Made by a program: the position numbers. From Gammaproteobacteria bacterium (lineage in GTDB: Bacteria; Pseudomonadota; Gammaproteobacteria; JBIOEC01), in contig OZ257143.1 of NCBI GenBank assembly GCA_965279305.1, positions 180,001 to 212,000 of the forward strand: a stretch of 32,000 nucleotides of DNA. Reading direction: 5' to 3'. Within the stretch, counting starts at the first letter, position 1. Each line of letters starts with the position of its first letter. Of this stretch, positions 3,001 to 9,000 are shown in pieces.

Positions 3001-6000
3001 CGAAAATAACTGATGGGTTTGAACAAGCAACAAATTTAGTCAAAGCTGTTAAACAAAAACCACTTTAATTCCTAGGAATTGTAATTAAAGAGATCTGAGG
3101 CTCAGTCGAACAGAAAACCGAATTAAAAGAAATAGTTTTAAGCAGCATCCGCACTGGTAAAATGACCTGCCGCATATTCATGTAATACACTCGCAATAAA
3201 GGTCTGGTAAGGCAACCCTTTAAAAGCAGCTTTTTCTTTTAAGCGAGCAAGATCGGCATCGGAAATCCGAAGCGTAATTCGGGCATTCTTACGAAAATAA
3301 TTCTCCCCTGCTTTTCGAGCCATTGCTGCTATTTCTTCAAAATTGTCGACTGATTCCCATTCCTCTAGAGAATCCTCTATTTCCTGCTCTTCTGGATCTA
3401 ATTTAACATCAAATACGTCACGCTTTTTCATGTTTCACCTCATGTAGATATTGTTTAGTCAATTTTCGACTTGGATAAATTGTTTTAAGAAAGATAGTAT
3501 TTTTATTTTTTATAACAAATGGAACACCATATACATACCCTCCTATCTCTACTATAAAAATCTGCTGATGAGGGTATTTTTTTACATTGGGGTGCTCAAT
3601 AACATCAAACATCTTCCCTTCTGTTAGTATAGCTATCACCTCTTCAAAACTCACGCCCCTTTCTTTTATGAGGTGATAATTTTTTTCAGATGAAAATTCA
3701 TAGTGCATTTTTTCTTCCTTTCTCTAAAAATACCACAACGTGCGACTTTTGTCAAACAAAGCCCTCAAATAGCTGACACCCTCAGAATTTCACTCTTAAA
3801 GGCAGCCTCTATTCTCAAGCTCACCTTCCTACTGTTTTTGCCTTAAGATGGACTCCAGCTTTTCCAGGCTATCCCTAATCATCATACAGAGACGTTTTAT
3901 CCATTCGATAATACCCATAGCCTACTCCTTAGCCTGTTCATCAAGCAAGGCTTTAGCGTGGCTCATGAGCTGGCTTAGCTGGGCTTCATTTTGATCCTTT
4001 GCCGTATCTAAGAGGTTGCTTACTGCCCATAAGTAATCATGCTGCTCATTCTCCTCCTGCTCTTGGAAACACTTAGTCAGTGCCATTTTGACCAAGGCCA
4101 CAGACTGGCAAAGGTAAACGGCTAGCTCTTCTCGTTGATAGGATTGTTGGTTTATAAACTGGCACAGATCGTTTAGACTATGGGTAGTCATGGCCTAATC
4201 TCCTTTCAGATTGGGTTGTGATTAGTGCCACATGGGTGCTTCAACATCCGTGTGGTACGCTTATTAGTTAGGCTAGCATTTAAAGCTTAAAATATCAAAT
4301 GCTTTTTTACTCTTTTAAGTTTTTATCCAAAAGTGCCTTGATGATATCACCCATTGTTTTGTCTTCCCGAACGGAAGCCATCTTTAGCCTTCTGTGCAAG
4401 GATAGGGGCAAGTCGATACTAAAACGCTTCACTTTCTCTTCGGCCTTCTTCGAATTGTTATCTTTTGGCATTGCTGGTTCCTTTAATAATAGGGCAGGCT
4501 CTATTATAGCATTTAAGCCAAAGCTTATTTACTGAAAGCCCATTTAAGCTTAAAAGACCCTTATTAAGCAGGTCAAGTATCACCTTATCCAAACTCGAGA
4601 ACCTCAACTCGGTAAAATACGAGTCGGAGTTTACCGAGTTAAGTCAGGTAGAACGTCCTCTTCTTTTTTAATAAATAAAAAAATGGCTTGACTCGCAGAT
4701 TAGACATTGGTAGTATTGTATACAAGTCAACAATTTGTAATAAAGATTTATAGTATGAACAAAGCTAGCATTACTCTAACCCTTAAAGGGACGGGACTCT
4801 CATATGAGAAAGAGATAGATGAAAATACGGCAGCTCAAATCATGGCTCTGTGTCTTACACTCCATGAGAGTCGATTAAACACAGAGAAAACGGGGCAACT
4901 CCCTTCATTTCAGCGCATCCTTTCTAGCTCTCAAAGTGAATCCGCCGCGGAATATCTAAACCGCTATGCCCCAAGACGGAATCCAGACAAGATCCTTGCA
5001 CTAGCAGGTTTTTTGAAGATGCATCACAACAAAGAATCATTTGAACAGGGAGAAATCAAAAGTCTCTTTCGTGACGCAGGGGAATTAACGCCTGCAAATC
5101 TTACTAGAGATTTCAAAGCGACTGTAGCTAAAGGCTGGATTGCTCCTGAACCAAATAAAAAAGGTAGTTTTTATATCACCAATACGGGTATAAAGGCATT
5201 GGAAGGTGGTTTCCCTGAGGAATCAGTGGTAAAAAGAAAAGCACCACGCCGTAAAAATAAAGGGTAACACTATGTCAGACGAATTAAAAACAAAGCTTCA
5301 TGATATACAGAATTTGGTAAATGAGTGCCTAGAATTATTAACTGGTCATTCACCGACTCCAAAAACGTCTACTATAAAGAAGAAGTCTGCAAAGAATAAC
5401 GAGCTTGATAACCATGTATTAATGATTACTAATAAGATAAAAAGCTGCGAAGAAAGTGAAAAAATAGAAGAAAAAATTCTTGATAGAGCCTCTGTTCTTG
5501 GACGAGTTCTTTTACCTTATTACATTTGCTACAAACATTTCCCAAAGCAAGGACTTACCACGGGCGATGTGGCAAAAATAACTTCTGAACTACGAATAGG
5601 GGTTAAACTCTCCAACATATCTACAGCTATTACTAACTCCCTACAAAAATACCTTGAAGGAGATTCAACCAGGGTAAAGGGAAAGCCCGTAACTTACAGA
5701 CTAAATCGGAAAGGAGCGAAGCATTTTGAGTCTCTCTTAAATAGTGATGAATAAAGTAACATCTAGCATTGAAGAATTTTCTCTATGCATGAGTAAAAAA
5801 GCTAAAAAAATCGCAGATAGGGCGCTTGCGTTTTTTTACTATTACGCTATAAAAAATGATAGTGGCACGACTCTAAAACAAATCATCTCCGATTTTGAAA
5901 AATGTGGTCTTGGATCGCCCAATATTACGAAATTACGAACAGCAATCACAAAAGACCGGCGCCTCATCAAGGTTTCAAAAGATAGCTGGCGTTTGAAAAG

Positions 6001-9000
6001 TGATAAAATTTCAGAAATTGAAATAAAATTCCAACTTAATCAATGTTTGAAAATAAATAAAACTTCCTCTCTAATTTTAAATGGGGAATTTATAAACATT
6101 GCTCGTCTTGAACAAATTAAAAATATAAAAGGATCCCTCGATTTTTCCAGGCTTACTCAAATGCTTTCAGAATTAAACCATGCTTTTTTAGTGGGAAATT
6201 ACATCTCTGTGAGTCTATTAACTCGAGCGATTATAGACCACATTCCACCAATATTTGGTTTAAAAACATTTTCTCAAGTAGCAAGTAATCATGGAACAAA
6301 AAGTTTTAAAGATTCGATGGATCATTTAGACAAATCGTGTCGAAAAATAGCAGATCTTCATCTCCACACACCAATTAGGAAAAATGAATCGCTACCAAAT
6401 AAAACACAAGTTGATTTTTCCAGTAATCTTGACGTTTTATTAGGTGAAATTGTAAGGGTTAGCATACCTCCATAAAAAAGTTGTTTGTGATGCATCTGAG
6501 AAATAACGACAAATTTGTGCAAAAAGAGCGAGAGGCTGTTTAAAAAATGAGCATTTAAGTGGTATTTATCATCTAAAAACCTATTTTACGAGCATTTTCT
6601 TTTAAGCTCGCACAAATTTGTCGTTATTTCCGAAAGCCCTTTAGAAGTACACCAATTTTTGCTATCTTATTCGGGTAGCCGGTTCAATTGATCTTTCAGG
6701 ACGAAGTTTCTGGGGGTATATTTGGGGGTATTTCTTAAAATGGCTCAAAGAAAGTCTTTTTTAAACAATCGGTTATAAGCCAATTCGATTGACACCGCCG
6801 CTTGTGAAGCTGTTTTTGGAACCATATTTCAAAAGATATAGTACAAGCCCAGCTCTTATCCACTATTTTTCTTACCGAGGCGCAAAAACTGATTCTGTAT
6901 TTTTTTCAGGAGGAGTTATTTCTTTAAAATGATGGGGAACGTTATCAGTCAGACTATCGCCTTTTAAAGAATAGATAAGGGCCAGTGCTTCTACCGCATT
7001 CTGGACAAAAACTACATGATTTAAGCACTCATTTTTTCTACTCAACGGTTGCCCGGCTAACCTTTCTAGCACAGAATTTTTGGTATCATCCAAATTTTTT
7101 TCTAACTCATTTAATGTAAGGGTTGGAATTAAAAAATCAATTACGTCACTATAAAATTGAGCAGTTTGAACCAATAAATTCCTCTCGAAATAATAAAAAA
7201 CTCCTTTATGTTGAGTTTTTAATCGGCACATTGAAAAAAAATGTGATGCGGCTTCGATGATATTACGAAGTCCATCTGCTTTTTCTTTAACTCCTTCATC
7301 ACTCAATTTAGGTTTATTTAATTCAAATTGACTATTTATCTTAAGTTTTTCAAAAAAAACTTTTCCCAATTTAGGAGAGATATTATTTTTGTGTATTAAT
7401 TCAAAATTATAAATATCAATTTTGGCTGCTGTTTCTTTACCCTCTTTGACAACATAAGCAGAAGAGTCTTTATAAAATAAAATTTTTGAAATAATAGCCT
7501 TATAAGGTATTTTGTTATCGACTATTTGATCAGCATCAATAACTGCCAAAACAATATGTGTTTCACCATTTTTGCCCCAATGAGAAAGCCTACGCCAGGA
7601 ATACCCAGTCCTTTCAGTTAAAGAAAGATGATCAAAAAAAACAGGGATATTACCCTGTTCAATAAGATGATTATTTAAAGAGGCGGCCACTTGCTCTTCA
7701 TTATAAGATTTTACTCCTCTCAAACCGGAATAAAAAGTATCTGCATAACCGGGTAAATAAGCATATATCAAACGCATAAAAACTCCTTTTTAACTAAAAT
7801 CACACATCAACTTCGTCTACGGCTGCCTCGCACTCTTTACTCTTAATTTAGCGGGTAATGCAATTAAGGTCCCCCATGTAACACCTGACGAGGACTTGCC
7901 CCCTTGTATAGGTTGAATAACTATCTCGGCCCACTAAGAGAAGCGTTCAAACTGATGTTAGGAAACAGAGGTGAAATGGGCTGCTCCGTCCTTACGGTTA
8001 AAAAATCGCTGGATACCGGTGGCGATATTACATGGCTATCACTTCTTTCAAAGGGGAGAGGAGCTCTATCTCCACGTCGATGAGACGACACAGGTTTGCG
8101 TCCTACAGTCCAGTGGTAAAGCTGTTTAACATTCTGGTAAATCACGCCCCATAATGCCATATGTGCAGCAGAGTCTTCATTTACCATCATAGGATAAGTA
8201 GGATGCGAATAGCTTTCCGTGAATGCATCAGCATATTTCCGGTTCTCCTGTCCCGGTAAAGAGAAGACTTGCTCTGCTTCAACTGCTGGTTGAGAGTAAT
8301 AAACAGAAGGCAGGGCAGCGTGCAAAGCTAACCAAGCAGAGTGCCAAAATGGTTCAGAAATACTGGCGGCCGAAGAACTGAATTGTGGCACAGAGGGATA
8401 AAAAATAATTTCAGAGGCAGCCGCACCGGTTACAATGTAACCAGAGCATGTGCTTGTAGGCTTTACTTGGTAAACGCCCGGTTCAGACGGTACATGGCAT
8501 TCATCATCATCATAACCCTCCAGGCAGTCCTCAACCCAGAAGCAATTCTCACTCGCTCGAGTCTCTAAAACCGGCTTCACTTTATCTTCCAGCTGAATTC
8601 CTAGATGTACTGCAATAGGCTGCACTTTTTTATAAAAACCATCAATCACTGAAAGAAGCGATTGGTATTTATTTATCTCGCTCAGCAGATCTGCTTCAAG
8701 AATACTGAATGGTAGCCGTTCATCTTGATACTGTTCATTCATATACTTTCTTAATGAGTTTAGAAGAGCTAGAGCATCCTCACGCAATTCGGTGGCTGAC
8801 ACATAAGCATTCTCTACAACCTCTTGAAGTTGCTGTAAATCCTGAGGCAACACTCTCAAAAATTGTGTAGAGAGTTCCGTATCCAGAATAGTCTTTTCTG
8901 TTTTCTCAAGTAACTCTCCTGTTTTTTCAAAAAACCAGTGTCTGCGTCCATGTAAATTCTGCGCAACCTCTTCGCGATATGTCTTCAAACGTTCAAACAG

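Follow-up and report, generated by a model that had tools for sequence, protein, structure and literature searches.

In a 32,000-nucleotide stretch of gammaproteobacterial DNA (hereafter the window; positions 180,001 to 212,000 of contig OZ257143.1, assembly GCA_965279305.1), we describe an operon of three small genes, g1, g2 and g3. The operon is a real, horizontally spreading unit, and its last gene carries a widespread, previously unannotated HEPN-like domain. As it is often found beside restriction-modification genes, the trio is a credible candidate for a new defence or toxin-antitoxin-like module, whose function is putative. The three genes are laid out as follows:

g1: positions 4755 to 5267, plus strand; 170 residues from an ATG at 4755, a start chosen by homologue lengths

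g2: positions 5272 to 5754, plus strand; 160 residues

g3: positions 5747 to 6475, plus strand; 242 residues from an ATG at 5747, with a GTG at 5744 as an alternative start

The start of g1 was placed at ATG 4755, and an upstream TTG at 4707 rejected, because the 52 aligned homologues of its product have 165-188 residues, in agreement with a 170-residue protein. The preliminary description of this DNA had recorded three co-directional reading frames with a 4-nt spacer between g1 and g2, and both statements are confirmed. The 11-nt overlap that it gave for g2 and g3 is obtained only from GTG 5744; the database protein for g3 begins at ATG 5747, from which the overlap is 8 nt. No model in Pfam, NCBIfam, PADLOC or PHROGs matched any of the three products, and a plasmid DNA similarity search with positions 3000-8000 of the window likewise returned no match.

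The full-length AlphaFold2 model of g3 (predicted local distance difference test, pLDDT, 89) consists of two globular parts joined by a disordered linker:

g3 winged-helix domain: positions 5804 to 6046, plus strand; residues ~20-100, with a helix at 22-37, a strand, helices at 43-52 and 60-69, and strands at 73-77 and 80-83

g3 C-terminal domain (hereafter the C-domain): positions 6089 to 6463, plus strand; residues ~115-239 (~125 residues), modelled as an all-helical, HEPN-like bundle

The first part displays the three-helix core of a winged helix, with a beta-hairpin wing following the recognition helix, and its top Foldseek matches are the FOXN1 forkhead domain, the MCM8 winged helix and STIV F93 (E >0.1, probabilities 0.9-0.99). 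When modelled on its own, the C-domain reaches a pLDDT of 93.6 and a predicted template modelling (TM) score of 0.86; the division of g3 into a winged helix and a helical C-terminal domain, as first proposed, is thereby upheld. The C-domain comprises helices at 118-125, 134-148 and 152-165; short elements follow at 167-181, and then a long helix spans 185-207 and is connected by a 17-residue loop to the last helix, at 225-239.

We recovered 327 homologues of g3, and a BLAST comparison with this homologue set revealed that many align solely over the C-terminal half. A HMMER scan of 1.84 billion cluster representatives detected the C-domain in 1,625 clusters at 50% identity with E up to 1e-3, and in 1,329 with E up to 1e-10. 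It thus constitutes a large family that spans most bacterial phyla and is so far unnamed in Pfam, NCBIfam, PADLOC and PHROGs; the seven copies found on plasmids bear the label 'hypothetical protein', as does every other annotated copy encountered. The domain always lies at the extreme C-terminus (median tail 0 residues), and in a set of 201 proteins the sequences in front of it fall into at least 45 unrelated clusters. In a Pfam scan of 145 representatives, the N-terminal parts gave only sporadic domain matches (DUF2321, HNH_repeat, zinc ribbons and DUF2513). This constancy of the C-terminal part, combined with many unrelated N-termini across phyla, is what one expects of an effector whose targeting or sensing heads can be exchanged.

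Residue conservation was assessed over 205 unique C-domain sequences, with numbering from ATG 5747. E142, R160, H165, F175 and S186 are invariant (R160 and H165 in 205 of 205 sequences each), H207 is found in all 204 sequences with a residue at that position, R199 is nearly invariant, and D132, D164, D203, R211, E214, Q221, D229 and E234 are conserved in more than 98%. Two conserved Arg-His pairs emerge, namely R160-x4-H165 and R199-x7-H207. The former falls within a string, RAIIDH, that had already caught the attention of the earlier reader and has proved to hold invariant positions. The motif then proposed, R200-x5-H206, corresponds to R199 and H205 in the present numbering and fails as a family feature, with position 205 being Tyr in 124, His in 57 and Phe in 15 of the 205 sequences.

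One could envisage that the C-domain is non-enzymatic and serves interaction or oligomerization, with the module serving mobile elements as a DNA-binding, nucleoid- or partition-like, or anti-restriction factor. All three proteins indeed look DNA-binding, g1 has a tail rich in Lys and Arg, a ParG-like gene lies upstream of the operon, and there is no catalytic profile match. However, at least 13 invariant charged or His residues in a stretch of 125, across ~1,600 clusters, are atypical of an interaction domain, and no ParA or partition ATPase is associated with the module; hence, we regard this proposal as improbable.

The HEPN fold is a four-helix up-and-down bundle with frequent inserts between helices 2 and 3, and its defining Rx4-6H motif lies where helix 3 ends or where the loop leading to helix 4 begins (PMC3710099). 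The modelled C-domain has two long helices, separated by a short helical insert from another long helix, which ends in R...H and precedes the final one. The R199...H207 pair terminates this long helix, the third of the core, and an end-to-end alignment would equate it with the HEPN motif, although its spacer is one residue too long. In Foldseek searches of the PDB, none of whose matches is significant, the highest probabilities all belong to HEPN proteins, namely TT1696 (1ufb, 0.87; TM 0.54/0.55), TM0613 (1o3u, 0.63) and ST0689 (1wol, 0.47), and other HEPN matches include the HepT toxins (5yep, 6m6u and 7bxo), Csm6 (TMq 0.56) and Csx1 (TMq 0.50). A Foldseek search of viral predicted structures with the C-domain yielded nothing meaningful, and profile searches of PDB sequences with the g1, g2 and g3 families and the C-domain gave only noise and no HEPN protein. 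Going by the model, the C-domain plausibly adopts a HEPN-like fold and may be a divergent HEPN, a candidate member of the superfamily.

The same architecture of a winged helix followed by a helical domain may also be read as that of a one-component transcription factor. The helical domain would then bind a ligand or metal, as in GntR/FadR-FCD, MntR and PaaX, g1 and g2 would be co-regulators, and the whole would be a regulatory cassette of mobile islands, for instance for the expression of restriction-modification genes. In line with this, the full-length g3 model weakly matches FadR, VanR, NanR, MntR and PaaX (TM 0.18-0.25), metal binding is conceivable at the invariant His, Asp and Glu residues, and the operon has a conserved operator of autoregulatory appearance (see below). 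Against it, a constant C-domain attached to at least 45 unrelated N-termini, zinc ribbons included, is the reverse of what such regulators display, and its conservation is far above that usual for sensor domains. Moreover, the 50 best matches of the C-domain model include no FCD or related fold, and there is no FCD or GntR match in Pfam. Accordingly, we deem a one-component regulator unlikely.

The products of the first two genes can be parsed as follows:

g1 product: a conserved N-terminal module of ~35 residues, a variable linker, a winged-helix-like domain at ~60-155 and a Lys/Arg-rich tail

g2 product: an N-terminal helix of the form LxxKLxxIxxLxxEC and a C-terminal half with a winged-helix-like sequence pattern

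Comparison of domain-restricted profiles with hhalign relates the winged-helix region of g1 to the N-terminus of g3 with a probability of 80% (E 1.3e-5, 75 columns), and by this measure the two winged helices are homologous. The C-terminal half of g2 (39 homologues aligned) matches the N-terminus of g3 in register but weakly (E 0.009, probability 4.6%), so that its kinship to the g3 winged helix is only suggestive. Neither whole-protein comparisons nor domain-restricted profiles detected a relation between g1 and g2. The original view of the three proteins as bearers of paralogous modules is therefore sound for g1 and g3, and for g2 it amounts to a suggestion.

Each of the three genes thus represents a conserved protein family. 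Homologues of the three proteins come mostly from metagenomes and share about 55-68% identity with the window proteins. The named hosts are largely Patescibacteria (Saccharibacteria, Azambacteria, Zambryskiibacteriota, Paceibacterota and Gottesmanbacteria), along with Verrucomicrobiota, Nitrospirota and one genome of the Poriferihabitaceae, a sponge symbiont. The source genome of the window has two diverged copies of g2 and g3, 88-90% identical, on a contig of 1,869,759 bp. Hidden Markov model (HMM) searches of all fetched loci found g2 in 10 loci including the window, always directly upstream of a g3-type gene and overlapping it by 4-26 nt. At the level of gene order, this shows that g2 and g3 are an obligate and, as the overlaps indicate, translationally coupled pair. 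Tight coupling to an upstream reading frame is seen for 37 of 80 C-domain genes in the wider family.

The first gene of the unit varies. It is g1 in L001/L007, L005, L006, L011, L015 and L096, a 113-residue protein in L002, L010, L012 and L016, and a 131-residue together with a 137-residue protein in L093 and L017. These substitutes display helix-turn-helix-plus-wing sequence patterns. According to hhalign, the 137-residue type is a clear relative of g1 (97.6%), matching both the g1 and the g3 N-terminal HMMs, and the 113-residue type has no significant relation to g1, g2 or g3. A locus with an apparently broken g1 was also encountered (L095, 5905-6478), in which a 65-residue C-terminal fragment and a 33-residue reading frame are called and the operator-like motif upstream is kept. 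The Poriferihabitaceae locus (L015, 5184-8708) holds a five-gene array of a g1-like gene, a 341-residue fusion of a g1-like domain with the C-domain, a further g1-like gene, g2 and g3. This array, with its g1-like domain fused directly to the C-domain, shows that the winged helix of g3 itself is replaceable by the g1 module. Taken together, the gene orders show that the first position is swappable, being filled by g1 or by one or more other small, putatively winged-helix proteins. What recurs in other genomes is thus a g2-g3 core with a variable winged-helix gene upstream, and not the strict trio, whose first gene is replaceable.

The region upstream of g1 contains the following elements:

sigma-70-type promoter: positions 4688 to 4716, plus strand; TTGACT at 4688-4693, 17 nt, and TAGTAT at 4711-4716, with TG before the second hexamer

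operator-like palindrome: positions 4707 to 4733, no strand assigned; overlaps the -10 box and the likely transcription start, with a core TTGTATACAA at 4716-4725 and a conserved right arm ACAAGTCAACAA at 4722-4733

imperfect palindrome with 20-nt arms: positions 4603 to 4643, no strand assigned; in the divergent intergenic region between a ribbon-helix-helix gene and g1, ~45 nt upstream of the -35 box

The promoter agrees with the consensus at 9 of 12 positions. Promoter-like sites are not rarer in the window than in shuffles of it (6 found against 7.8 expected), and hence the site taken alone is not above chance. Its standing as a good promoter, claimed at the outset, derives instead from an upstream alignment of the window with L001, L005, L006, L011 and L096, in which the TTGAC and the 17-nt spacing to a -10-like hexamer are invariant between the window and these five g1-type loci of other phyla. 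The palindrome TTGT-N2-ACAAGTYRACAA (4716-4733), which overlaps the -10 hexamer, is likewise conserved across phyla. The string TTGTNNACAAGTYRACAA occurs a single time in the 32-kb window, with 0 expected from 100 shuffles, and in 98 fetched loci (~1.2 Mb) the strict or relaxed motif was found solely just upstream of g1-type genes (L001/L007, L005, L006, L011 and L095). Where the 113-residue type takes the first position, a separate near-consensus promoter is present, TTGACA-17-TATAAT. That a non-coding palindrome is kept at ~35% protein divergence argues for its being bound by an encoded protein; together with the conserved -35 box it suggests autoregulation through this predicted operator, for which we infer that the binder would most simply be g1. 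The palindrome at 4603-4643 is single in the window and absent from the related loci, and its membership of the operon is not certain.

Restriction-modification genes of several types adjoin 9 of 16 independent trio-type loci, as a raw count without a matched background, and such recurrent closeness in unrelated genomes is what is expected of a defence-island gene. The module follows a type IIG enzyme in L001, and in L002 it lies after hsdM-hsdS-hsdR and before a KAP NTPase. A type I operon accommodates the trio in L096, where the three genes separate hsdS from hsdR and the stop of g3 overlaps the start of hsdR. An EcoRI-like methylase is found near the module in L017, and other methylases in L006 and L010. 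Genes near the module in L095 encode an EcoRI-like methylase, an HNH protein and a serine recombinase, and between them L093 and L095 have recombinases and a type IV secretion coupling protein nearby. In two further loci (L005, 4684-6868; L012, 4614-6894), the module is directly preceded by a gene pair, for an EcoRI-like adenine methylase and then a DUF262/GmrSD_N protein with a DGQQR motif; this shared pair, seen despite different first genes, may denote a larger co-travelling island. The defence or mobile neighbourhood that had been ascribed to the operon from the window is supported by these relatives; the window's own operon has no restriction-modification gene beside it.

We tentatively favour, at a little less than an even chance, the reading that the operon encodes a latent HEPN-like nuclease, held in check by small winged-helix partners, as an abortive-infection or addiction device of defence islands. 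Under this proposal, a winged-helix protein, most likely g1, would bind the palindrome and repress the operon, and the C-domain would be a HEPN-like enzyme, probably an RNase, whose catalysis might proceed via the invariant Arg, His and Asp residues at the ends of the core helices. In the manner of an antitoxin, g2, and possibly g1 too, would keep g3 inactive until phage infection or loss of the element freed its activity, resulting in abortive infection or addiction. The module might thereby back up the neighbouring restriction systems as a second line, in the way PrrC does within its type I operon. We base this preference on the conservation of the unit with its variable first gene, on a C-domain with at least 13 invariant polar residues whose best fold matches are HEPN proteins, on the adjacency to restriction-modification genes, on a plasmid copy beside DUF3644 (see below), on the conserved promoter and operator, and on the presence of two copies in the genome.

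The gene layout is also that of type II toxin-antitoxin systems, with adjacent, co-directional, overlapping small genes and an autoregulated-looking promoter whose operator is putatively bound by a product of the operon. Hence, a plain addiction module that stabilizes mobile islands deserves consideration, with g2 as antitoxin, g3 as toxin and no part in phage defence; its proximity to restriction-modification genes would then reflect no more than shared mobile DNA. Its small overlapping genes, the palindromic operator over the promoter, the patchy spread across phyla at about 60-65% identity and the two copies per genome would all fit, as would the recombinases and secretion coupling protein near L093 and L095, and the BrnT/BrnA-like pair and ParG-like ribbon-helix-helix gene that neighbour the operon in the window. 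Conversely, the module has three to five genes and not two, the candidate toxin has its own DNA-binding domain, and the L096 trio, sited within a type I operon and sharing a stop/start overlap with it, suggests functional coupling. We therefore judge a plain addiction module fairly unlikely, while noting that it overlaps heavily with the latent-nuclease reading and differs from it only in biological role.

Several observations weigh against the latent-nuclease reading. Four-helix bundles are common folds, and every Foldseek match of the C-domain in the PDB has E >0.6. No HEPN or nuclease profile is among the matches listed for 265 family members (120 scanned at E up to 10 and 145 further representatives at E up to 0.001). 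The spacer of R199-x7-H207, at 7, exceeds the upper limit of the HEPN-defining 4-6 by one, and R160-x4-H165 has the canonical spacing but ends the preceding helix. PADLOC-DB v2 has no match for g1, g2 or g3 at E up to 1. The C-domain is represented by 0 records in the phage collection and by merely 8 viral contigs, and g2 was found in none of the viral contigs. In the window itself, no restriction-modification gene is adjacent to the operon, and the wider C-domain family has no consistent neighbour, the genes next door being mostly diverse housekeeping ones. The HEPN-like character first proposed for the third protein thus retains its best fold matches, and lacks strength in those matches, a profile match and a conserved R-x5-H. 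As a possible extension, though one less likely than not, we advance the full proposal that the C-domain is a divergent HEPN-like nuclease family, and that the operon, a winged-helix array with a winged-helix-effector protein, is a new restriction-modification-linked defence system, especially of Patescibacteria, that was transferred into a eukaryote-associated intracellular symbiont.

With respect to the wider C-domain family, a location inside type I operons, guessed from gene sizes, was ruled out by the mostly housekeeping neighbours. On a Methylobacter plasmid (NZ_CP091425.1; L097, 4299-10782), a C-domain protein lies between a DUF3644 protein, of a HEPN family, and a pair of an AAA ATPase and an ATP-dependent helicase, with His-Xaa-Ser radical SAM genes nearby.

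Around the operon, the window holds several further elements. An overlapping pair at 3138-3708 on the minus strand is BrnT/BrnA-like and of toxin-antitoxin type; its 96-residue reading frame weakly matches DUF4258, PBECR3 and BrnT, and its 97-residue one CopG_antitoxin and BrnA, all below the Pfam curated cut-offs. A 54-residue ribbon-helix-helix reading frame at 4307-4471 on the minus strand, divergent from the operon, matches ParG with 23.2 bits (cut-off 21.4), and no partition ATPase is near it. Just past g3, at 6500-6630, there is a perfect 21-nt inverted repeat, GAAATAACGACAAATTTGTGC, with 89 nt between its arms; it resembles a miniature inverted-repeat transposable element, and the window contains no further copies of it. 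A 373-residue protein at 1947-3068 on the plus strand matches phrog_9373, of unknown function, over its C-terminal 200 residues (E 1e-27), with weak matches to DUF2207_C and LeoA. Downstream, positions 7921-29907 are taken up by a run of eukaryote-like or effector-like genes, including one for a 1,896-residue protein with a weak GTPase match and the following:

RNase III + ankyrin protein: positions 16684-18528

Sel1 + double-AAA protein: positions 18929-22150

F-box + ankyrin protein: positions 23471-25624

leucine-rich repeat protein: positions 27409-29907

Because ankyrin, F-box, leucine-rich repeat and Sel1 genes make up the rest of the window, its host would seem to be a eukaryote-associated intracellular bacterium; the gene content suggests a symbiont or pathogen of a eukaryote. 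The two diverged copies of the module amid such effector-like genes document gene flow between ultra-small bacteria and an intracellular symbiont.

To our knowledge, few defences are recognized in Patescibacteria, and their immune repertoire is poorly known; the proposal, if true, would add a defence or addiction system to it. The module would also be a further instance in which restriction-modification systems are coupled to a latent effector. Should the C-domain prove to be an effector enzyme, it would represent a widespread family that is absent from Pfam, NCBIfam, PADLOC and PHROGs. With its conserved operator, three small proteins and handful of invariant residues, the operon offers an unusually clean test system.

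Neither in these libraries nor in the papers searched did we find a description of the trio or the C-domain, and the initial statement that no described system matches this architecture holds against all four libraries. PrrC sits between hsdS and hsdR in the prr locus, the same place as that of the trio in L096. More generally, the HEPN RNases of restriction-modification operons, such as PrrC/RloC, ApeA and EC042_2821/DUF3644 (PMC3710099), resemble g3 in having a small helical effector domain with an Arg and a His ending a core helix, and they are likewise fused to winged-helix or other targeting domains and sited beside or inside such operons. Unlike them, g3 has no profile similarity to any Pfam HEPN family, has an Arg-His spacer of 7 in place of 4-6, and adds a second invariant cluster (R160, D164, H165, S186 and K188) that is not described for HEPN. 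Also in contrast to them, the operon has no ABC ATPase or nuclease partner, the partners being small winged-helix proteins. The HepT-MntA (HEPN-MNT) and RnlA-RnlB type II toxin-antitoxin systems share with it the overlapping small genes, a HEPN-like candidate toxin and a probably autoregulated promoter, but here the partner is not a nucleotidyltransferase, the candidate toxin has a winged helix, and there are three to five genes. Type IX retron effectors combine a putative HEPN nuclease with a separate winged-helix protein in a defence context (bioRxiv 10.64898/2026.07.14.738597). The pairing is similar, whereas our operon has no associated reverse transcriptase or non-coding RNA. Regulators of the GntR/FadR type have the same order of a winged helix and an all-helical domain, and give weak full-length fold matches to g3; they differ in that g3 has neither an FCD profile nor a domain-level fold match to them, and in that its C-domain is constant and the N-termini variable. 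Thus, the logic of a helical effector with DNA-binding partners near restriction-modification genes is familiar, while the proteins that carry it are not, and the C-domain stands a substantial chance of being a new effector family.

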